In this document: piece after piece, positions 4,631 to 24,585 of the stretch | Layout: every line of letters starts with the position of its first letter | How positions within the stretch are numbered: position 1 is the stretch's first letter | Virus genome (UHGV): UHGV-0123901 | From: a virus | DNA: 30,503 bases | Direction: 5' to 3' (one strand) | Position numbers and translations under genes: made by a program | The notes under the pieces: model-generated | Seen by the model: the letters and a program-made list of their open reading frames with translations, nothing else | Database searches by the model: none | What the model was told of the DNA's origin: nothing

Positions 4631-5149
4631 TTACAGGCCGATATTGCGGCGGTGTTGCTCCAGCCGGTCGACGCCGTTCACCTTCTCAATCATGTTGATG
4701 GTGTCGATTTCGACCAGCTCCTTACCGTCCATCGTCAGCCGGAAATAGGTGCAGACCACGGAGATTTTCGACTCAGTGTCTTCTCCCTGTTTACCCTCGC
4801 CGGTGTCGATTTCTTTCTGACGTCCACGCATGACCACTTCGACGGCCACCGTTTCGCCGGTATCGTCACGCTGGTAAGAGCCTGCAAAACGAATCGGCAC
4901 AGCATCCACACCGGTTGCGGCGTAAAGCTCCCAGATAACCGAATCCGGGAAGCCACCGAGCGACCACTCCATTGACAGCGCATCGTCATCAAGGCCGAGG
5001 TCTACCGGTGCGCTGCCGTTCATCCCCGCACCGCGATAGTTTTCGAGCTTACGGGTCAGTTTTGGTAGCGTGACGGACTTTGCAACGCCCTGATAGCTGT
5101 ACCCGTTCAGAAAGACGTTCATTAACTTGAGTTTGCGCGGCATTGCCAT
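4631..5149 (-). CDS. FII: tail tube protein (P2 gpFII-like)
   Basis: 172-aa ORF immediately downstream of the sheath gene. Confidence 0.9.
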   Translation of the reverse strand: MAMPRKLKLMNVFLNGYSYQGVAKSVTLPKLTRKLENYRGAGMNGSAPVDLGLDDDALSMEWSLGGFPDSVIWELYAATGVDAVPIRFAGSYQRDDTGETVAVEVVMRGRQKEIDTGEGKQGEDTESKISVVCTYFRLTMDGKELVEIDTINMIEKVNGVDRLEQHRRNIGL

Positions 5150-5161
5150 CGGTCAGGCTCC

Positions 5162-6352
5162 TTAATTGCTGTTAACCGAGGTGACCAGATTTGCCAGGTA
5201 TTTATCGGTAATACGCTGGCGCAGGGTCAGGTTTTCGAGTGGAGGCACCGGTGTATAGTCGTAGTCGATATACAGTTTTCCGGCCTTAAGGGTTTCCGCA
5301 TCGTTGGATTCTTCGCTGAACCAGCAGGTTGCATCCACGATATAGCCGTTTGTTTTCAGCTCACGGAATTTGGCATTGATGCCGTCAACGATGTCGCGAA
5401 TCAGCGTTGCGGTGATGGGCTTGTCCACCGCCCACATGTGCGCCTCAGCCATCGTGTCGGCCAGCACCTGCGCGGTACGGGTGTAGTTTTCAAAGAGGAA
5501 CAGCGGGTCATCAGAGCAGGTACGGTTACCCCAGAATCGGAAACCGTCACGGCGAATCAGCGTGGTGACGCCTGACTCGTTAAGCAGGTCAGCATCGGTG
5601 CCGGACTCCTGCAAATCCCAGAATACAGATGCGCTGATGCCGGTAACACCGTTCACCCCGACGTTGGACAGCGTTTTATGCCAGCCCTGCTCCTGGTCGA
5701 TTTTAGCGCGCAGCCCCAGCGCACGAGCGGTGGCATACGCGGTGGCGGTGGTACTGGTGACCGTATCCCATGCGAGGAAATCCGGCCAGATGACCATCAG
5801 CTCACGCTGGCTGAAATTCTGGCGGTAGGCTTTCACCTCGGAAATGGTTTTACAGCCCCATGCGCTGATATACCCGAAAGCGCGCAGCTTCTGACAGACT
5901 GATGCCAGTGCAACCGCCACCTCTTTGGTGTCCAGTCCCGGCACACCGAGAATACGCGGTTTAACACCGGTAACCGACTCCGCCGCCAGCAGGGCTTTTA
6001 GTCCGGTGTACTGACCGTTTTCGTCGGTGGTGCCGATGATATTGGAAACGGTCTGCGCAAGTTTCGTTTCCTCGTCATCACCGGTGCCGTCCTCCACGCG
6101 CACAACAACGGTGACCGGTTTTGACTGGTCGGCGATAGCCTGCAACGATGCCGCCAGAGTGCCTTTTTTACCGGCCTTTGCAATTGCGCTCTGCACATTG
6201 GTAATCAGCACCGGTTTATTGAGGGGGAAGGTTTCCGCATCCGCATCGCTGGCCGTGCAGACCATGCCAACAATGGCAGTGGATACGGTGGAAATGACGC
6301 GGGTGCCGTCGTTAATCTCCAGCACCTGCACGCCGTGATGATAGTCACTCAT
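5162..6352 (-). CDS. FI: contractile tail sheath protein (P2 gpFI-like)
   Basis: 396-aa ORF at the head of the FI-FII-E-T-U-D block. Confidence 0.9.
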   Translation of the reverse strand: MSDYHHGVQVLEINDGTRVISTVSTAIVGMVCTASDADAETFPLNKPVLITNVQSAIAKAGKKGTLAASLQAIADQSKPVTVVVRVEDGTGDDEETKLAQTVSNIIGTTDENGQYTGLKALLAAESVTGVKPRILGVPGLDTKEVAVALASVCQKLRAFGYISAWGCKTISEVKAYRQNFSQRELMVIWPDFLAWDTVTSTTATAYATARALGLRAKIDQEQGWHKTLSNVGVNGVTGISASVFWDLQESGTDADLLNESGVTTLIRRDGFRFWGNRTCSDDPLFLFENYTRTAQVLADTMAEAHMWAVDKPITATLIRDIVDGINAKFRELKTNGYIVDATCWFSEESNDAETLKAGKLYIDYDYTPVPPLENLTLRQRITDKYLANLVTSVNSN

Positions 6353-6411
6353 CCGTTTAACTCCGTGGTTAATGGGTGAGTGGTATTTTCAGTTGTGCCG
6401 GAGATGTCAGG

Positions 6412-7011
6412 CTATTTGTCCCGGTTGGCTAAGGGATGACACAATTTATTCTTTGTCGCTGATGAGGGGAATTTCTTATAGAGCGTGGACAGGCCAATAT
6501 CAAAAATCAGCGCCACGCGTTGACGAGATTCCCCCGCAGCCAGCAACCGTCCGACCTGCTCCCACTCACTCGCGGTGAGTTTCGGACGTCTGCCACCAAT
6601 ACGACCTTTGGCTCTGGCCGCTTCCAGTCCGGCGCGTGTCCGCTCGACAATGAGTTCTCGCTCCATTTCAGCCAGGGCACCCATCACATGAAAGAAAAAA
6701 CGCCCCATCGGCGTGCTGGTATCAATAGCATCCGTCAGACTGCGAAAATTAACGCCGCGTTCGCGCAGTTCCTCAACCAGAATGACCAGATGCCGCATAC
6801 TACGCCCCAGCCTGTCCAGCTTCCAGACTACCAGAGTGTCACCTGCTGATAATGTTCTGAGCAGTTTTTTCAGTCCCGGTCTGTCGGACTTCGTGCCGCT
6901 GATTTTATCCTCAAAAATCCGCTCGCATCCTGCGCACTCCAGCGCGTTACGCTGCAATTCCGTGTTCTGGTCATTTGTTGACACGCGTACATAGCCAATA
7001 AGCATGAGCAT
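6412..7011 (-). CDS. serine-recombinase DNA invertase (Hin/Gin/Cin/Pin family)
   Basis: 199-aa ORF with N-terminal IGYVRVSTNDQ catalytic-serine motif and C-terminal HTH; sits just outside a gix/hix-like crossover site next to tail-fibre genes. Confidence 0.9.
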   Translation of the reverse strand: MLMLIGYVRVSTNDQNTELQRNALECAGCERIFEDKISGTKSDRPGLKKLLRTLSAGDTLVVWKLDRLGRSMRHLVILVEELRERGVNFRSLTDAIDTSTPMGRFFFHVMGALAEMERELIVERTRAGLEAARAKGRIGGRRPKLTASEWEQVGRLLAAGESRQRVALIFDIGLSTLYKKFPSSATKNKLCHPLANRDK

Positions 7012-7062
7012 CCCCCTGAATAAAAACCGGAGATGATGCCAGTTGCCCGTTATCTCTGCATT

Positions 7063-7086
7063 TTCATAAACGTTGGTTTGGGAGAA
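7063..7086. other. invertase crossover site (left, gix/hix-like)
   Basis: ttcataaacgttggtttgggagaa; its reverse complement ttctcccaaaccaacgtttatgaa shares 14/14 nt (ttctcccaaaccaa) with the site inside H at 8833-8858; imperfect dyad around a central dinucleotide. Confidence 0.6.
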
Positions 7087-7434
7087 GCGGCGAAAAGGGA
7101 TGTGGGCACAGGAGAAAATCAGATACCGGATATGTCATCCTGGAAAAGAAATCCGAGTTCTAATCGCTGGAGAAAATTGCCTGATGGAACCATCATTCAA
7201 ATGGGAATATCAGCATCAGGGCCATTAGGCTCACCTGTAAATATCACCCTGCCGATATCTTTCAGCAATACCAATTATTGTGTTGTTGCATCGTACGATA
7301 ATGCACGGTCAGGTGTGTCAACAATGGTTAGTTTTGCAGCATTACCTGTTTCACCATCGCAATTTTCCCTGATGTCATCTGTGACTGAGCAAGGAATAAA
7401 TCCTTTTGCTTACTGGATTGCTTTTGGAGATTGA
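7075..7434 (+). CDS. alternative tail-fibre C-terminal segment (S'v-like), silent in this orientation
   Basis: Open frame beginning at the crossover site, in frame with the constant part of H after inversion (276 codons of H, then about 120 codons here). Confidence 0.55.
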   Translation, partial: GLGEAAKRDVGTGENQIPDMSSWKRNPSSNRWRKLPDGTIIQMGISASGPLGSPVNITLPISFSNTNYCVVASYDNARSGVSTMVSFAALPVSPSQFSLMSSVTEQGINPFAYWIAFGD

Positions 7435-7437
7435 TAA

Positions 7438-7857
7438 ATGGACAGATACTTCTATTCACAAAAAGAAAATGGTTTTTTTACCGATTTAAATAAAGCACCT
7501 TCAGATGCTGTTGAGATAACCACGGATGAATGGCTGTCACTACTGGATGGTCAGGATAATGGCATGAAAATAGTCAGCAATCAGGAGGGATATCCGGTTT
7601 TGACAGAGCAACCACCTTTATCAAAAGAAAACCTTATTGCATTGGCGGATTTGAAAAAAAGAAAACTTATTAATGAAGCCAACGAGCACATGAACAGCAG
7701 ACAATGGCCAGGTAAAGCGGCTATTGGTCGTCTGAAAAGTGAGGAACTGGCGCAATATAATTTGTGGCTGGATTATCTGGACGCACTGGAACTGGTTGAT
7801 ACCTCCAGTGCTCCAGATATTGAATGGCCTACGCCTCCGGCAGTTCAGGCCAGATGA
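7438..7857 (+). CDS. tail fibre assembly chaperone, alternative copy (U'/Tfa-like)
   Basis: 139-aa ORF whose C-terminus (LWLDYLD...SAPDIEWPTPP) parallels that of the opposite-strand Tfa (LNAVLDYID...APDVIWPELP); convergent with it, as in Mu G and P1 C segments. Confidence 0.75.
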   Translation: MDRYFYSQKENGFFTDLNKAPSDAVEITTDEWLSLLDGQDNGMKIVSNQEGYPVLTEQPPLSKENLIALADLKKRKLINEANEHMNSRQWPGKAAIGRLKSEELAQYNLWLDYLDALELVDTSSAPDIEWPTPPAVQAR

Positions 7858-8431
7858 CATCCGGCGCGGTGCTGGTATCTGTTGCCGTCACCGAGTCAAT
7901 GTAATCCAGCACAGCGTTAAGTCGGGTGTTTTCTGTCTGCGTCAGCTTCCGCCCGGCCTGTAATTTCAGCTGAATCAGACTGATGGAAGCCATTGCAGCA
8001 TCAATCAGCGACTGGCGCTGTGCTTCTGCCGCTTCTACTGCGGCGCTATGCTGTGCCTCAGTATCGGTCACCCATTTCTCACCATCCCATTTATCGTATG
8101 GCGTTAACGGTGCGAGAGTGGTTGTATTTTCGGGATAGTCGCCTGGTGCTGTGATTTCTTTGGCATCTCCCGTTTCGGTGTTGTAGACAATTTCACCGCG
8201 ATGGTCTGGCACATATTCCCATGAGTTAAAATCTGCAGAACGGCAGATTGCATAACCAGCTTTATGTGTAACTGGTGCATCTAAACAAGAACATGCCGGG
8301 ATACCGACGCCAATGGCAAGATATTCATTTGAAGTAGAAATATATTCCCGAGTTTTACCATCATAGTTATAGACGGTAATATTCCCCGCCTTCGTGGCAA
8401 TAAGCTCGCTATTTAATACGGCGTTATCCAT
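7829..8431 (-). CDS. tail fibre assembly chaperone (gpG/Tfa-like), currently expressed orientation
   Basis: 200-aa ORF immediately downstream of H with start/stop overlap; conserved Tfa C-terminal motif. Confidence 0.8.
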   Translation of the reverse strand: MDNAVLNSELIATKAGNITVYNYDGKTREYISTSNEYLAIGVGIPACSCLDAPVTHKAGYAICRSADFNSWEYVPDHRGEIVYNTETGDAKEITAPGDYPENTTTLAPLTPYDKWDGEKWVTDTEAQHSAAVEAAEAQRQSLIDAAMASISLIQLKLQAGRKLTQTENTRLNAVLDYIDSVTATDTSTAPDVIWPELPEA

Positions 8432-9672
8432 TATGCAGCCCTTACGATATAGTTAAATGCAATATTTCGTGGACGGGTTTCGCTCCCGCCATATGATGAT
8501 GTAAATCCCGAATATGCCCGGTGTCCCGCATCCGTCGTATTAGCCCAGGAAGGACCGCTAGAAGTATAGATGACCCCATTGTAATCATGGCCGTGTGCCT
8601 CAATGCTCCCGTCCTGAGCAGACAGGAGAGTCCGTCCTGAATCAATTCCTCTTCCATCATCCCACCCACGAATGAATTCGCCGCGTAAATCTGGCAATTT
8701 ATTTGTCGGATAAACTTTTGCCAGTTCCGGATACTCTTCGGCAGAAAAAGCTGCACCGTTGCATTTCAGCCAGCCTGTTGGCGGAGTGGCTGAGGGCCAC
8801 GGAACAGGCACACCAACGGGTAATGCCGAACCTTCTCCCAAACCAAGGTATGCGAGAAGACCGGCAACATCCTTTCCACTCAAATGAGTCAGCGTCTCAT
8901 CCAGTGGCTGCTTACCTGACAGCGCATTGTTAATAGTGGTGCTGAATTTCGGGTCATTGTTAATGGCCGCGGCAATTTCTTTCAGTGTATCCAGCGTGGC
9001 TGGCGCGCCGTTAATCAGAGCGGTAATAGCAGCCTGAACAAACTCAGTGGTCGCAATCCGCGTGGTGTTATTTCCTGCGGCAGGCGTCGGCGCTTTTGGT
9101 TCTCCGGTAAATGTCGGATTATGTTTCTGTGCATACTGGGTATGAGGATCCTGTGCGGCAATGTGGTTTCTCATCTGGTCATCCACATACAGCTTTAACT
9201 CCAGAACTTCATCATCCACGTATTTACGGGTCGCCAGTACCACCGACGGGTCGATTTTCAGCGTGATGGCTTCGGTATTCGTGACAACCAGAATCATGCG
9301 GATAGTCTGGGTACGACCGCTGCCTTCCTGCAACTGCGGTTTGTACGTTTCCGGGCAGTTCGCCACCGCAATGAGTACGCCTTCATCATCATAAAGCCCA
9401 ATCTCACGGATCCAGAATCCGCCCTCGTTCTCAGGGATGATTTGCTCCGCAATAATCTGGCTCTGGTTGTTCGGGTCAACACTCAGAAGATTCAGCGGTG
9501 CAATGCGTTTCTGATTAATCAGTTTTGTCTGTGCCGGGTCTGGTGTCGGCAAGACACCATTCGCATCACCAACGGCCATTTGCGTCAGATTCAGCTTACT
9601 GCCGAGCATCGTCGCGTTAGCCAGCCGTGCTGCGCCCTGATTAGTCAGAATGGCGTAGTATTTCACTGTCAT
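8431..9672 (-). CDS. H: tail fibre protein (P2 gpH-like constant N-terminus, variable C-terminus)
   Basis: 413-aa ORF after I; a crossover site lies inside the gene at 8833-8858, dividing a 276-codon constant part from a 137-codon variable part. Confidence 0.85.
   Translation of the reverse strand: MTVKYYAILTNQGAARLANATMLGSKLNLTQMAVGDANGVLPTPDPAQTKLINQKRIAPLNLLSVDPNNQSQIIAEQIIPENEGGFWIREIGLYDDEGVLIAVANCPETYKPQLQEGSGRTQTIRMILVVTNTEAITLKIDPSVVLATRKYVDDEVLELKLYVDDQMRNHIAAQDPHTQYAQKHNPTFTGEPKAPTPAAGNNTTRIATTEFVQAAITALINGAPATLDTLKEIAAAINNDPKFSTTINNALSGKQPLDETLTHLSGKDVAGLLAYLGLGEGSALPVGVPVPWPSATPPTGWLKCNGAAFSAEEYPELAKVYPTNKLPDLRGEFIRGWDDGRGIDSGRTLLSAQDGSIEAHGHDYNGVIYTSSGPSWANTTDAGHRAYSGFTSSYGGSETRPRNIAFNYIVRAA
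8833..8858. other. invertase crossover site (right, inside H)
   Basis: ttctcccaaaccaaggtatgcgagaa; inverted repeat of the site at 7063-7086. Confidence 0.6.
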
Positions 9673-10280
9673 GCGTTTACTCTCAGGTTATCAATTAAAT
9701 GAATGGCCGAGGCCGGGAAATAATCCCCTCCGACAATAATGGCCTCCGGGGTGTAGGGATAAACCGTCAGGGCGTCACCGTGATAGCATCCCGCACCGGC
9801 AAAAATGTTGCCGGTTGTACTTAAACTGATAGCCAGTCCCGTCAGATGGCGGCTCGCCGGTTTTGCATCAGCAACGAGGCGCTCCAGCTCCTGATACATT
9901 TCCTCGGTAATACCCTGCTCAAGCACACCAACAACGATGCGGAATGTCCCCGGCTCCTCGTTGAGCAGCCACCACTCCCTCACCTCAATCAGATAGCCGA
10001 GCGGCTCCACCACACGCCGGATTGCGCCTATAGTGCCCTTATGGCAGTGAATGAAATACGCATCGCGGATAACAGCGCGTTTTGTCGCTTCCGGCCACTT
10101 ATCATCCCAGCGGTCAACCGAAAATGACCACGCCAGCCACGGCAGCAGATTTGCCGGGCAGGTGTCCGGGTTCCACAGCTCACGAATACTGACCGGCGTT
10201 TTTTCAATTTCCGCACAGGCTTTTGCGGCGGCAACTTCAAGCGGTGATGAGCCGGTCGGCAGCAGGCGCGAATCACTCAT
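9669..10280 (-). CDS. I: baseplate protein (P2 gpI-like)
   Basis: 203-aa ORF between J and H, overlapping both neighbours. Confidence 0.8.
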   Translation of the reverse strand: MSDSRLLPTGSSPLEVAAAKACAEIEKTPVSIRELWNPDTCPANLLPWLAWSFSVDRWDDKWPEATKRAVIRDAYFIHCHKGTIGAIRRVVEPLGYLIEVREWWLLNEEPGTFRIVVGVLEQGITEEMYQELERLVADAKPASRHLTGLAISLSTTGNIFAGAGCYHGDALTVYPYTPEAIIVGGDYFPASAIHLIDNLRVNA

Positions 10281-11181
10281 CCGAGCCTCCGGTCACGACG
10301 CGGTATTCGGTACAGAAAGACGCCTGCGTACTGTTGAGCACGATGTCGGCCAGTGGTGCAGCCAGTTCGACACGCTGCACACCTTCCACATGCAAAGCGG
10401 CATAAATGGCAGACAGACGGATGTCGCGCCCCAGCCGGTGCTGTGCCGTGATATACGCTTCCAGCTTTTTCACAGCGGCAGCGCGGATGGGTTCGCTTTC
10501 GGGACCAGGGTAAAGGTAAAGCGTGGCGTTTATCTGGTATTCAACGATGGCGGCAGACTGCACGGTCACGCGGTCGGCCACCGGCCTGACGTCCTCGCCA
10601 TTAAGGGCGTTGCGCACCACCGCCAGCAGGTCTTCGGATGCGACACCGTTATTTTCGCGAGACAGCACAGAGATAGTGACACAGGCCGGAGACGGACTGG
10701 TGACAGAGATATCCGCGACACGCCCGTCGGCACTGCGACCATGATACTGATAAGCACCCACCGACCCGGCGACGCTTAAGCCCTCAAACGCCTGCTGAAT
10801 ACGCAGACGATAATCGGTGTCAGACTCCATCACTGCCGGTGTCGGCGGGATAGTCGAATCATCTGCCGGGGTGATAGTCAGGCGCGTGGTGTTGTAATTG
10901 GCACCAATCACATCAAGGTCATTACCGGCTGCACAGGCCAGCATCACCGCCCGTGCAGCCTCATTCACACGCTGACGCCAGATAAGCTCACGATAAGCAT
11001 TTTCCTCCAGCAGTTTGACGAGAGGCTCAGATTCCAGCGTCAGGGTACGGGCGACCGCCTCCTGCTGGTCTTCCGGGTAAAGGGAAATCAGTGTCGCCTT
11101 GCGTTCGGCGAGAATGGTTTCAAAGTCCAGCTCCTCAACCACATCCGGTGCGGGTAGCTGGTTCAGGTCGATAATCGGCAT
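10273..11181 (-). CDS. J: baseplate wedge protein (P2 gpJ-like)
   Basis: 302-aa ORF, length and position as P2 J. Confidence 0.9.
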   Translation of the reverse strand: MPIIDLNQLPAPDVVEELDFETILAERKATLISLYPEDQQEAVARTLTLESEPLVKLLEENAYRELIWRQRVNEAARAVMLACAAGNDLDVIGANYNTTRLTITPADDSTIPPTPAVMESDTDYRLRIQQAFEGLSVAGSVGAYQYHGRSADGRVADISVTSPSPACVTISVLSRENNGVASEDLLAVVRNALNGEDVRPVADRVTVQSAAIVEYQINATLYLYPGPESEPIRAAAVKKLEAYITAQHRLGRDIRLSAIYAALHVEGVQRVELAAPLADIVLNSTQASFCTEYRVVTGGSDE

Positions 11182-21748: not shown

Positions 21749-22549
21749 CTATTTCATCAGTCCTATAAAAGCTGCTGTCATGCTACCCAATGCACCAATA
21801 GCAGCAAATAACGTTGCCCAAAACATGCTTTTTTGGCTACGAATATTCTCATTATATCGTTGTTCTTCATTATTGAAGTGATTTAACGTATTAATTGCTT
21901 TTCCGGTGGGCTTATAACCATCTCGAGTCTTTGAAATGTCCCCACTCTCTACAAGGGAATCCAGACATAAGCGAAGTTCTTTTATGAGTCGAGAATAATC
22001 ATCATGGTAGATCCATAAACGTCCTGCCACATCATTCATAATTAGAGTCTCCCTGAATGGTTTTTCCCCTTGCTGCTCTCGATAAATTCTGACAATTGCA
22101 GCCAATACCGTCATTACATCAGTTATCTCCTGCTTGCGTTGTCGATACAAATACTTCTCACGACTTAGCTTTTTATTTTGACGATCCGCTATTCTTCTAA
22201 ATCTAAGTACATTAAAATAAGATAAATCATCCAATGAGTCAAACTTCAATTCATGCGCATGATAATAATAAATTCCAGAAAAGGAATTTGATGTAAGTCG
22301 TTCTGGTTTAAGAATTGTATCAATATTGAAAGTTTTATTCTGATGACTCCACTTCTTAACCTTTATAATTCCGTTTGAATAACTATCAAAAAGATAGTCA
22401 TTACCCTCATCATCCTTAATGTAAACGGAATACATATCGTAATGAATGGCACTCTCATACATTAAACTAATTCTGCCATTTTCAGGAGTCTTCTTTGACT
22501 CAAAAACTTTCAGAAACTTTACAACATCAACTTTATTTTTATGCCTCAT
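21749..22549 (-). CDS. hypothetical protein with single C-terminal hydrophobic helix; candidate effector of the RT module
   Basis: 266-aa ORF in AT-rich cargo DNA, 165 bp downstream of the RT gene on the same strand; C-terminus MFWATLFAAIGALGSMTAAFIGLMK; no domain recognised by eye. Confidence 0.6.
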   Translation of the reverse strand: MRHKNKVDVVKFLKVFESKKTPENGRISLMYESAIHYDMYSVYIKDDEGNDYLFDSYSNGIIKVKKWSHQNKTFNIDTILKPERLTSNSFSGIYYYHAHELKFDSLDDLSYFNVLRFRRIADRQNKKLSREKYLYRQRKQEITDVMTVLAAIVRIYREQQGEKPFRETLIMNDVAGRLWIYHDDYSRLIKELRLCLDSLVESGDISKTRDGYKPTGKAINTLNHFNNEEQRYNENIRSQKSMFWATLFAAIGALGSMTAAFIGLMK

Positions 22550-22714
22550 ACATTCAGCCTTGACTGTAAACCACCATATTAAATGATTGCACTAACGACT
22601 CGTACTACTTATTGTTCAACCCAGTCAGAACTGAAAGCAAACTTTTGCACTAACTGGGTTGCCATCATAATATATCGATACTAATAAAATCCGATATTAT
22701 TATATTTTAGTGTA

Positions 22715-23665
22715 TTAAACCGATGTATTTGCTTTCAACGTCAATACTTTCGATCTATAACGTTTTTCAATAACCCCCATTGAATATAAACGACCAAATA
22801 ATTTCTTTGCTGTTCTTGTATCTTTAGCTTGTTCTACATCTTTTATTATTTTCCAAAGCTCTATTTCTCTAGCCATAAGATAATGCTGTTCGTTCCTAAC
22901 CTTTAAGCTATCCCCAAATACTATAACTCCTGTCACTAGTTTAGGCTTATCCCCAGCATATAATTTCGTTTTAGTTGGATGCATAGCGTGTCCATGCTTA
23001 TTAATAATCTTACGAATCACGCTGCAAAACAATCGATTTACATTATCTCCAGAAAAAGTAAGATCATCGACATAAACTGTCATTTTCACACGAAACTTCT
23101 CACAAAGTTGATTCATTTCATCAAACATTCTGGAATTTGCAAAATATGCTAATGGCATACTAATCCGACTACCCGTTGGCAATCGTTCATGACAGGTACA
23201 TATATGAGATAAAATATCAGCCACATCTGGCGACATTTTCATTATTGAGAAAAAGAAAGAAAATATCATTTCTCTTGTTGTTGACGGAAAAAAAGATCTA
23301 ATATCTGTAGTCATCAACTTCTGATGATTGAGATGTGCTTTAGCATTTGTTATGTTAGAGCAACTTTTTTTACCAGAGTGTAAATATTCGGGCATAGCTA
23401 TACGCAATAATAAACTCGCAATACGTGTATGCACTACATCTAATTTTTCTAAAGGCTTTTGTATTTTCCGTATTTTATTTTTTTTAGAAAGCTGTTCAAA
23501 AATAGAGTAATTACCCTCATCCCTTTTCAAAACTGATAGGTCATTGATACTAACGCAGAGCAAGCTAGCCAACTTTTTTTTACTTTTAAGTTTATAAAGT
23601 GGCGAATCCGTAATAGGATAAGATTTATTTTTAGTTGAAACCTTCAGCTTAATCCTTTTTTTCAT
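22715..23665 (-). CDS. reverse transcriptase, retron-type
   Basis: 316-aa ORF with NAKAH...DIRSFFPS (NAxxH and finger motifs), LPTGSRISMPLAYFAN (motif B-like), VYVDDLTFSG (YxDD catalytic motif C) and KLVTGVIVFG (the VTG triplet typical of retron RTs). Confidence 0.85.
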   Translation of the reverse strand: MKKRIKLKVSTKNKSYPITDSPLYKLKSKKKLASLLCVSINDLSVLKRDEGNYSIFEQLSKKNKIRKIQKPLEKLDVVHTRIASLLLRIAMPEYLHSGKKSCSNITNAKAHLNHQKLMTTDIRSFFPSTTREMIFSFFFSIMKMSPDVADILSHICTCHERLPTGSRISMPLAYFANSRMFDEMNQLCEKFRVKMTVYVDDLTFSGDNVNRLFCSVIRKIINKHGHAMHPTKTKLYAGDKPKLVTGVIVFGDSLKVRNEQHYLMAREIELWKIIKDVEQAKDTRTAKKLFGRLYSMGVIEKRYRSKVLTLKANTSV

Positions 23666-23963
23666 TTCTTTTACTTACCCACTCTAGTATATCCAGAACT
23701 TTCCCTGCCAGTTTTAAACGTAAACTTTTGGATAATCGTCCTTGTGTCCCTAATGATTCTGAAAAAAAGACCAAAGAGGATACTGGCATGTCGAAATGGG
23801 AAGCATAACGCTGTAAAATATCAATCGACGGCACCCATAGTCCGCTTTCAATCTCTACTATTCTGCTTTTTGGAATACCTAAAGATGATGATAAGTCAAC
23901 TATTGATTCTTTATGGTATTGCCTTATTAAACGAAGGGCTTTATGCAACATAGGCAACTCCAT
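23649..23963 (-). CDS. XRE-family helix-turn-helix protein, translationally coupled to the RT gene
   Basis: 104-aa ORF with HTH signature SIVDLSSSLGIPKSRIVEIESG; its stop overlaps the RT start by 17 nt. Confidence 0.6.
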   Translation of the reverse strand: MELPMLHKALRLIRQYHKESIVDLSSSLGIPKSRIVEIESGLWVPSIDILQRYASHFDMPVSSLVFFSESLGTQGRLSKSLRLKLAGKVLDILEWVSKRNEKKD

Positions 23964-23987
23964 CTTGTTGAAACTAGGGAGGACGCA

Positions 23988-24143
23988 TTACTCATCTCCC
24001 CCTTCAAAGAAGTCAACTGCGCGAGTGATCCAATAAAGTAGTCTAATAAGCCACTTAATTACACCCCAAGCGTTAGGAGTCTTCTTTTTCCGGTTTAACT
24101 TGTTTTGCGCCTGCTGTTCGTTGGTTACTTTATCATTTTTCAT
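23988..24143 (-). CDS. small hypothetical protein (51 aa) with hydrophobic segment; may instead be non-coding
   Basis: AAGGAG RBS 6 nt before the ATG (MKNDKVTNEQ...), hydrophobic AWGVIKWLIRLLYWITRAV; a longer 97-aa upstream extension seems less likely. Confidence 0.3.
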   Translation of the reverse strand: MKNDKVTNEQQAQNKLNRKKKTPNAWGVIKWLIRLLYWITRAVDFFEGGDE

Positions 24144-24245
24144 GATCTGCTCCTTATGTCCACGGTGTGCAAACGATATGTCTGCTCCAGCACCATGGCT
24201 CGCCCTCATAAGGATGAGATTGAACAGCACCAGCTCCCTGCTCCA

Positions 24246-24272
24246 CGAACCCTTTGTCGCCCAAAGGGTTCG
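24246..24272. repeat. perfect 11-bp stem hairpin (cgaaccctttg / caaagggttcg, 5-nt loop)
   Basis: Read directly; not followed by a T-run on either strand, so not an obvious terminator. Confidence 0.5.
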
Positions 24273-24585
24273 AATACCCATACGCTATGCCGCGTGAATC
24301 AGAGACTCCTGTCGCTGACAGAGGCGTTGCGCGGGGTAAATGTTAGAAAGCATTAGCTTTCCACGGGCAATAAATACCCAATTGATGGCGATTTATCTCA
24401 CTAACTAACCAATGATTGAATCATACCAAGTAAACCGTTGTATTTGATCTCTCCTTATATAATTTTTTGTTATTAAACAACATAAATGAATAACAAAATG
24501 AAATAAAACTAATCTTCATCCGTCTCATCACAAGAAATATCAACAAATCAAGAATATCGTTTGATTATCTAGTCTTTCCAATTCA

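Follow-up and report, generated by a model that had tools for sequence, protein, structure and literature searches.

Some tail-fibre genes of bacteriophages are not fixed, and their ends can be exchanged by a site-specific DNA invertase. This mechanism has long been in the textbooks, from the Mu G, P1 C and e14 P segments onwards. The locus studied here raises the question of whether such a switch is present in a P2-like prophage, and whether it inverts. The window, by which we mean the whole stretch of DNA that was analysed (30,503 nucleotides of the virus genome UHGV-0123901), carries an invertase gene beside a segment with two possible fibre ends, and the sequence-only reading of it had proposed a G-segment-like switch of the tail fibre. 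We consider it very likely that an invertase switches the tail fibre of this P2-like prophage between two states, in the manner of the Mu G, P1 C and e14 P segments.

The P2-like element

The window apparently holds a complete P2-like (Peduovirus) prophage, as judged from its gene content. The P2 gene order V-W-J-I-H-G ... FI-FII-E/E'-T-U-D is present with P2-type proteins, and annotated homologues have the same order. Pfam matches were found to Tail_P2_I, the N-terminus of Phage_tail_fib and GPD. In addition, the Pfam matches to GPA, Cox and integrase place the whole element in the P2 group. The H-tfa genes are on the minus strand, where P2 has its late tail operon, and the module under study sits in the gap between H-G and FI of the P2-type tail module.

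Crossover sites and invertible segment

The features of the module are listed in Table 1. The arms 7061-7087 and 8832-8858 are the longest inverted pair within positions 5500-10500 of the window, and they contain two crossover sites, here called L and R. The two sites are imperfect palindromes that agree at 21 of 26 positions; furthermore, their 2-bp cores are identical, and so are their 12-bp inner half-sites. When a pix-type consensus was searched with at most 3 mismatches, matches were found at sites L and R only in the 30.5 kb, and there were none in 100 shuffles. A search across the window for additional crossover sites, as in a multi-inversion, shufflon-like system, found none.

Table 1. 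Features of the invertible tail-fibre module, in window coordinates.
Feature	Position	Strand	Description or evidence
DNA invertase gene	6412..7005	-	197 aa; small serine recombinase of the Gin/Pin/Hin class; Pfam, Gin structures, alignment
Candidate recombinational (Fis) enhancer	6910..6972	-	in the invertase 5' end, gene nt 34-96; two Fis-like 15-mers
Conserved spacer	7006..7060	.	55 bp, invertase start to site L; SD-like GGGGGA, possible extended -10, plus-strand ATGs
Crossover site L	7061..7086	+	pix-type, 26 bp; TTTTCATAAACG TT GGTTTGGGAGAA; core 7073-7074
Hv', silent alternative fibre C-terminus	7075..7434	+	119 codons and stop; gp53-like C-terminal domain; Pfam PF21882 1.6e-13
TfaP-like tail-fibre assembly gene	7438..7857	+	139 aa; pairs with Hv'; Pfam Caudo_TAP 5.8e-26; phrog_188
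TfaE-like tail-fibre assembly gene	7829..8431	-	200 aa; pairs with Hv; Pfam Caudo_TAP 1.9e-32
Hv, expressed variable C-terminus of H	8431..8844	-	137 aa; tail-collar domain; Pfam Collar, H residues 287-334
Crossover site R	8833..8858	-	26 bp, in H; TTCTCGCATACC TT GGTTTGGGAGAA on the minus strand; core 8845-8846
Constant N-terminal part of tail-fibre gene H	8845..9672	-	276 codons, outside the invertible segment; Pfam Phage_tail_fib N-terminal 1.3e-62

A pair of inverted 26-bp sites had already been described from the letters of the DNA. Both are present, and site R was placed exactly, but site L had been given as 7063-7086 and was thus 2 bp short. The segment measures 1770 bp from core to core, which is the 1.77 kb of the first description, and 1798 bp between the outer ends of the sites. 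Site L is separated from the invertase start by 55 bp. The architecture of the module is kept in 57 of the 64 related IMG/VR loci, and site L precedes the invertase ATG by 81 nt in almost all of those inspected.

Comparison with known crossover sites showed that L and R are pix sites of e14, the cryptic prophage of E. coli K-12, to whose P segment the segment in the window is related. Site L has exactly the sequence of the pin-proximal e14 site, and between site R and the second e14 site, which lies inside stfP, 24 of 26 positions agree. The sites also share the AAACC-NN-GGTTT core architecture with the gix sites of Mu. Moreover, e14 sites with the same 16-bp repeat, TTGGTTTGGGAGAAGG, were inverted experimentally by PinE, PinQ and PinR (PMC12529663).

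Fibre tips and assembly genes

When the segment was inverted in silico, the 276 H codons (8845-9672) joined the 119 codons and stop of Hv' in frame, which gave a fibre of 395 aa, compared with 413 aa in the present orientation. The earlier count, in which 276 codons of H would be fused in frame to about 120 codons at 7075-7434, is therefore correct. The reading frame runs on through the GLGE junction into either tip (137 aa or 119 aa). Past this junction Hv and Hv' are unrelated, and their Pfam domains differ (Collar versus gp53-like C).

Each tip is followed directly downstream by its own Caudo_TAP gene. These two assembly genes are convergent and overlap by 29 nt at their 3' ends, and the only part that their proteins have in common is a C-terminal stretch of 68 aa with 32% identity. 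The ORFs of the two tip cassettes and the two chaperones are all intact. The two convergent assembly genes and the two alternative fibre C-termini that had been recognized in the segment at first sight are thus all present. The module shares with the invertible host-range segments Mu G, P1 C, e14 P and p15B Min a constant fibre part beyond the segment, oppositely oriented tips that join it in frame at the crossover site, and a chaperone gene for each tip.

From this anatomy we propose the following mechanism. In the present orientation, the minus strand encodes H with its 276 constant residues and a 137-aa collar-domain tip, followed by the TfaE-like chaperone. The invertase would bind the two 26-bp sites as dimers, and the sites would be synapsed, probably on a Fis-bound enhancer in the invertase's own 5' coding region, by analogy with Hin and Gin. 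Cutting at the 2-bp TT/AA cores would then allow the 1770-bp segment to be rotated. After inversion, the same 276 residues would be followed by a 119-aa gp53-like tip and then by the TfaP-like chaperone. Since there are two alternative sets of tip and chaperone, the virions that leave a lysogen population would have one or the other of two receptor specificities, and the host range would be expected to change with the orientation.

The invertase

The ORF at 6412..7011 on the minus strand matched Pfam Resolvase (8e-53) and HTH_7 (5.5e-13). Translation probably begins at the second ATG, at 7005 (MLIGYVRVS...), and not where the longer ORF opens at 7011, because a start at 7005 agrees with Gin, with PinE and with the homologues as annotated in RefSeq. 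The protein matched the Mu Gin structures 3uj3 and 4m6f over its full length (E=4e-94) and gamma-delta resolvase at 3e-33. It is about 80% identical to Mu Gin, and it aligns with PinE and Gin over 180 aa with zero gaps.

In the gap-free alignment with Gin and PinE, the catalytic S9 and R42 were found in the invertase. Gin numbers are lower by 1 than Hin numbers, so that the catalytic serine is S9 in Gin and S10 in Hin; the conserved arginine is Hin R43. In addition, the enhancer-contact residues K46, K47, R50, Q150, R153 and L154 (Gin numbering) are present. The traits reported as specific to the Fis/enhancer-dependent invertases of the Hin/Gin/Cin/Pin (Din) family are basic residues at the helix-B positions Hin 47, 48 and 51, together with Gln151, Arg154 and Leu155 (Hin numbering) in helix 1 of the DNA-binding domain (PMC3798978). 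The two domains, the match to Gin and these signature residues confirm that a serine invertase of the Hin/Gin family lies beside the segment, as had been recognized from the translation. In NCBIfam there was no specific equivalog for any part of the module, and Rfam gave zero matches in the window.

The spacer and the candidate enhancer

The spacer 7006-7060 can be aligned across 62 related loci, e14 and Mu. The sequence TGGCATCAT, on the minus strand at 7041-7033, is a possible extended -10 of the invertase. We infer the promoter here, since a consensus sigma-70 scan found no match for the invertase or in the spacer 7006-7060. Candidate terminator-like matches exceeded the expectation from shuffles.

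A Fis-dependent enhancer had been expected inside the 5' end of the invertase gene, and the search for it gave a mixed result. There are two Fis-like 15-mers, GACCAGAACACGGAA and GAGCGGATTTTTGAG (gene nt 34-48 and 82-96), whose centres are 48 bp apart, and the gin 15-mers at the matching gene positions are likewise 48 bp apart. Each candidate 15-mer fits the Fis core on one side only. Furthermore, conservation at synonymous sites is higher in codons 1-33 (11/28) than in codons 34-180 (12/91; Fisher p=0.005). Per-codon synonymous diversity in 68 unique invertase genes and third-position invariance in 7 to 9 divergent representatives also indicated a raised constraint at the 5' end, a constraint which does not place the Fis sites. 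However, a strict scan of the invertase 5' region for the Fis core (G-N13-C, A/T-rich centre, 47-49 bp spacing) found no pair conserved in the window, pinE and gin, and for this reason we do not claim a demonstrated enhancer. The spaced 15-mers and the synonymous conservation only suggest that a Fis-dependent enhancer lies in the 5' end of the gene, and dependence of the switch on host Fis, on this enhancer and on DNA supercoiling would be expected from the family of the invertase.

The plus strand of the spacer could have another role. Two in-frame ATGs, at 7033 and 7036, open the silent-cassette ORF, which is annotated in homologues as 7033-7434 (133 aa). It could be proposed that, in the lysogen, the silent tip is produced from this ORF as a free receptor-binding domain and keeps other phages from adsorbing, besides or instead of a switch in the host range of the virion; the blocker produced would then depend on the orientation of the segment. 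Of the 62 related loci, 60 have retained the in-frame ATG that precedes the inner half-site GGT by 39 nt, and it is retained in e14 and Mu as well; GGAG stands directly 5' of the first ATG (7033). In addition, a chimeric e14 ORF that starts at the homologous ATG was reported to inhibit T2 adsorption, and e14 StfE2 was claimed to be a free adsorption blocker (PMC12529663). However, the conserved ATGCCA can equally be read as the reverse complement of an invertase promoter element. Moreover, the leader peptide is without conservation at the protein level, two loci (L030 and L031) have an in-frame stop, and Hv' is not homologous to the StfP tip. Thus, we regard a blocking role of the ORF as unlikely. 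If it were true, the invertase would toggle a prophage-encoded defence along with the virion host range.

Both orientations in public genomes

The fibre switch that we favour has two states, and both were found in public genomes. In 15 complete E. coli genomes the inverted junction is present in the form of one uninterrupted 'phage tail protein' gene, with 97-98.7% identity. The arrangement of the window, with the silent cassette adjoining the invertase, occurs in 88 genomes. Two Okinawan bovine isolates (L003 and L004) carry essentially the same prophage, with flanks that are 100% and 99.97% identical, and have the segment in opposite orientations. The breakpoints between them map to window positions 7073-7087 and 8832-8849. 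In L003, the identical 119-aa Hv' C-terminus is joined to H, and the constant part of H is collinear in both orientation states. Site R of L004 has a T variant in the inner half-site that is found at neither site of L003. Therefore, L003 did not arise from L004 in one step, and the pair shows inversion within a lineage and not a single clean event. The sequence-only reading had allowed that only one orientation might ever be observed, and this is not the case. At the level of public genomes, inversion between the two sites evidently occurs.

One may still ask whether the module is a frozen relic in the window, that is, inherited but no longer inverting here, with the database orientations left by old events. 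The window is a single consensus in which one orientation is visible, and neither the enhancer nor the invertase promoter was demonstrable in the scans. However, the invertase ORF is intact and has all the signature residues, and its protein is 197/197 identical in L003, L004 and L006, so that the same allele stands in both orientation states between flanks that are 99.97-100% identical. Furthermore, both sites retain identical cores and inner half-sites, and the two cassettes and two chaperone genes are all intact. We give very little credence to a relic; judged from these features, the switch in the window's prophage is probably active.

The likeness of sites L and R to those of e14 also suggests that inversion could be performed mainly in trans, by host PinE, PinQ, PinR or the invertases of other prophages, and not by the adjacent gene. 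Each of the three Pin enzymes inverts the e14 P segment, and Fels-2 Fin acts on the Salmonella H segment (PMC12529663). In addition, the region has matches at a median of 2 places per E. coli genome, with a maximum of 12. However, the cis invertase is intact and stands at a fixed distance of 81 nt from the proximal site in almost all relatives, which argues that the invertase gene and the sites are maintained as a unit. Moreover, enzymes acting in trans would supplement the cis invertase and would not replace it. As the main route, inversion in trans is extremely unlikely. Given the match of sites L and R to the e14 sites, however, the module is likely to be open to cross-talk from other Pin-type invertases of the same cell. 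Finally, RecA-type homologous recombination between the repeats was rejected as the cause of inversion, because they share only 14-16 bp of identity and the breakpoints fall on canonical invertase sites adjoining the invertase gene.

An invertase-driven switch of the fibre has consequences for annotation. A single assembled orientation does not suffice for reading off the host range, because the prophage can make fibres of two types. The 133-aa 'gp53-like' ORF is the stored alternative tip and not necessarily a separate gene. In addition, assemblies of such loci may differ in orientation without evolutionary distance.

Comparison with known systems

The tail module is collinear with that of canonical P2 (NC_001895), and the FI-FII region (window 5000-6432) has 97.4% nucleotide identity with it. 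However, P2 has a single H of 669 aa and one G, and the place taken in the window by the invertase and the second cassette is occupied in P2 by the cargo gene fun(Z). The order in NC_001895 is H, G, fun(Z), FI, with no invertase, in agreement with the earlier statement that canonical P2 lacks the switch.

The Mu G segment with Gin (S/U, S'/U') resembles the module in that the constant N-terminus of the fibre is encoded outside the segment, the two tips and their chaperones inside it, and the invertase just outside. On the other hand, the G segment is about 3 kb long with 34-bp repeats and a TC core, its fibre and chaperone proteins have no detectable similarity to those of the window, and Mu is a transposable phage.

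The e14 P segment with PinE (stfP-tfaP / tfaE-stfE) has the same layout as the window. The shared order is invertase, site, silent tip, assembly gene, convergent assembly gene, expressed tip and site, and in e14 coordinates the assembly genes have the same 29-nt convergent overlap. The segment is 1798 bp long in the window and 1797 bp in e14. TfaE is 89.5% identical to its counterpart in the window, the StfE tip 63% and TfaP 55%, and pinE is 81% identical to the invertase gene at the nucleotide level. However, e14 is a defective lambdoid remnant, and the constant part in the window is a P2 H-type N-terminus. Furthermore, the StfP tip is unrelated to the gp53-like tip Hv', for which the comparison gave no match.

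Such modules are also carried by other P2-like phages and prophages. In Peduovirus magyaro KC618326, pro483, S164 and Salmonella phage MET_P1_103_31, the module likewise lies between the fibre genes and FI, with the same order of invertase, tip, assembly gene, assembly gene and H. The module is found in RefSeq E. coli genomes at 95-97% identity, and the same kind of module is present in many P2-like phage records and in at least 600 IMG/VR contigs. The feature is thus already known and very common in P2-like phages. Moreover, in the P2-like prophages of EPEC E2348/69, segments of about 1.8 kb were shown by sequencing and PCR to invert, with both variants coexisting (PMC4272514). Because the module is common and its inversion in P2-like prophages was shown experimentally, the interest of the feature was overstated at first reading; the switch holds no new biology. 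The other P2-like modules differ from that of the window only allelically, with mosaic tips and H lengths of 413, 445 or 499 aa; such a mosaic tip is seen at window 8483-8652, which has no match in L003 or L004. Some of these relatives have three sites and four variants, and the window has two sites.

Crossover Sites and the Invertible Segment

The longest inverted repeat within 5500-10500 was formed by 7061-7087 and 8832-8858. It holds the two crossover sites, L and R, and the inverted 26-bp sites claimed beside the invertase and inside tail-fibre gene H by the sequence-only reading were found there. L and R agree at 21 of 26 positions, and their 2-bp cores and 12-bp inner half-sites are identical. 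Because a pix-type consensus (pix, the crossover sites of the e14 P segment), allowing ≤3 mismatches, had no match in the 30.5-kb window besides L and R, and none at all in 100 shuffles, the switch is a simple two-site system.

Coordinates of the switch, its neighbour FI and the cargo genes
Feature	Position	Strand	Remarks
FI	5162-6352		
DNA invertase ORF, long form	6412-7011	-	Resolvase catalytic domain, HTH_7
Site L	7061-7086		TTTTCATAAACG-TT-GGTTTGGGAGAA
gp53-like fibre C-terminus	7075-7434	+	
Tail-fibre assembly gene	7438-7857	+	
Tail-fibre assembly gene, convergent	7829-8431	-	
Present H C-terminus	8431-8844	-	Collar domain
Site R	8833-8858	opposite	TTCTCGCATACC-TT-GGTTTGGGAGAA
Conserved phage ORF	21749-22549	-	phrog_7611; no function assigned
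Retron RT	22715-23665	-	PADLOC RT_VI, 1.4e-105
Retron HTH	23649-23963	-	PADLOC HTH_VI, 2.5e-31
Conserved phage ORF	23988-24281	-	phrog_5826; no function assigned

Between the cores lie 1770 bp (7075-8844) with four elements, all of which had been named beforehand: two convergent assembly genes and two alternative C-termini. The in-frame fusion of 276 H codons to alternative codons was also counted correctly, since in-silico inversion joined exactly 276 codons (8845-9672) to 119 codons and a stop, giving a fibre of 395 aa vs 413 aa at present. The two tips share no sequence past the GLGE junction, which the crossover site encodes, and similarity of the two chaperones is confined to their C-terminal 68 residues (32% identity). 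In addition, about 170 nt inside the expressed tip (8483-8652) have no counterpart in two Okinawan bovine isolates, L003 and L004, whose H has 445 aa. By sequence comparison, the variable part of H is itself mosaic over this stretch.

Inversion in Public Genomes

The sequence-only reading had named detection of both orientations in a lysogen population among its checks; in public genomes, both are present. A recombinant-junction query (reverse complement of 7075-7400 plus 8845-9200) was searched in complete E. coli genomes. The predicted junction was found as one continuous piece, within a single annotated tail protein, in 15 genomes (97-98.7% identity), and the window arrangement, in which the invertase has the silent cassette as its neighbour, in 88. 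The clearest comparison is offered by L003 and L004: their flanks are 100% and 99.97% identical, and the 1.87 kb enclosed by the flanks align in reverse complement at 99.9% identity, with joint overlaps of 15 bp and 18 bp. The breakpoints map on the window to 7073-7087 and 8832-8849. Both isolates carry an invertase identical to that of the window (197/197 each), and the predicted 119 residues are the exact end of the L003 fibre.

Site R varies in its inner half-site, which reads TTCTCCTAAACC in L004 (5130-5155), L002 and L006 and TTCTCCCAAACC in the window (8833-8858), L003 (4315-4340) and L005. The C variant occurs at both L003 sites. Since the T variant of L004 site R is missing from both, L003 and L004 are not separated by one clean inversion event.

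In EPEC E2348/69, P2-like prophages carry segments of ~1.8 kb and ~2.2 kb whose orientations coexist by sequencing and PCR (PMC4272514). PinE, PinQ and PinR invert the e14 sites (PMC12529663), and a 16-bp repeat, TTGGTTTGGGAGAAGG, is common to the e14 and window sites. The observation is confirmed, the evidence supports its interpretation, and the switch very probably works.

The Invertase and Its Upstream Region

The assignment to the Hin/Gin family of serine invertases held in domains, Gin match and signature residues. Mu Gin crystal-structure sequences match at E=4e-94 and resolvases far worse, and catalytic S9 and R42 are present. Certain residues are conserved only in Fis/enhancer-dependent invertases (McLean et al., PMC3798978), and this signature is present as K46, K47 and R50 (basic helix-B) and Q150, R153 and L154 (DNA-binding domain). 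The gap-free alignment with Gin and e14 PinE (180 residues) begins at the second ATG (7005), so the true gene is most likely 6412-7005 (197 aa); RefSeq homologues are annotated with the same start.

A strict Fis-core scan of the 5' region found no conserved Fis-site pair. In the window invertase and in gin alike, a centre-to-centre distance of 48 bp separates two 15-mers (gene nt 34-48 and 82-96). Among nine divergent invertase genes, synonymous conservation was higher in codons 1-33 (window 6906-7005; 11/28 sites invariant) than in codons 34-180 (12/91; p=0.005). This constraint fits an embedded DNA element, for example a recombinational enhancer, and suggests an enhancer candidate only.

On the minus strand at 7025-7044, a terminator-like hairpin and T-run (AACTGGCATCATCTCCGGTT TTTATTCAGG) separate site L from the invertase start. 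By its consensus match only, this putative hairpin could keep transcripts of the late fibre operon from running on into the invertase gene.

Two in-frame ATGs, 7033 and 7036, open the silent-cassette ORF; they lie in 7033-7060, beyond the end of the invertible segment. Among L011-L089, 60 of 62 related loci keep an in-frame ATG as part of a conserved ATGCCA, 39 nt ahead of the inner half-site, as do e14 (L008) and Mu (L007); L030 and L031 have an in-frame stop. The ATG may act as a start codon; alternatively, the motif may be a candidate invertase promoter element (TGGCATCAT) in reverse complement. For e14, StfE2 has been claimed as an adsorption blocker (PMC12529663); that this ORF would serve likewise in the lysogen, by expressing the stored tip, seems very improbable.

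Prophage Setting and Distribution

By Pfam and gene content, the window is an almost complete P2-like prophage, running from gpD, tape measure, FII and FI through I, J, W and V (fibre/baseplate) to terminase/portal, gpA, Cox and integrase. Nucleotide identity to phage P2 is 97.4% over the FI-FII region (5000-6432), and the invertase ORF sits between FI and the fibre genes. A type VI retron lies in the cargo region (21749-24281), which has portal/terminase gene Q on one side and replication gene A on the other; its msr/msd RNA was not identified there by Rfam (0 matches) or an inverted-repeat scan.

The region matches 139 phage records, among them P2-like phages such as Peduovirus magyaro, pro483 and S164, in which a DNA invertase is annotated at the corresponding position. 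Copies of the whole 3.4 kb occur in RefSeq E. coli genomes at up to 96.8% identity, and IMG/VR holds at least 600 invertase relatives. Of 64 IMG/VR loci inspected, 57 paired one site lying exactly 81 nt ahead of the ATG with a single partner at a distance of 1.05-2.6 kb, and one had three sites. The latter, L048 (IMGVR_UViG_2747843111_000001), whose pix-type sites precede the invertase by 81, 1659 and 3490 nt, may be a multi-inversion system comparable to the four-variant one reported for EPEC (PMC4272514).

In L001 (NZ_CM151354.1, 1-5154), the genes ahead of the module are one for a tape measure and one for a 'phage tail protein' instead of FI; its H' junction has 98.7% identity with the window prediction, and its invertase is identical to that of the window at 145/197 residues. 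Since this version follows other tail genes, the module apparently moves from one tail-gene context to another.

Comparison with Known Systems

Canonical P2 has fun(Z) at the invertase position and no invertase, so it lacks the switch, as had been stated. By sequence, the module is related to the e14 P segment: identity to the window counterpart is 89.5% for TfaE, 63% for the StfE tip and 55% for TfaP, pinE is 81% identical to the window invertase gene at the nucleotide level, and the convergent chaperone genes overlap by 29 nt in both. With reference sites taken from the e14 and Mu sequence records, site L and the pin-proximal e14 site have the same sequence, the site inside stfP matches site R at 24/26 positions, and Mu gix (the G-segment sites) shares the AAACC-NN-GGTTT architecture. 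Switches of this class have long been known, are abundant and are already annotated, and the novelty of this one is low.
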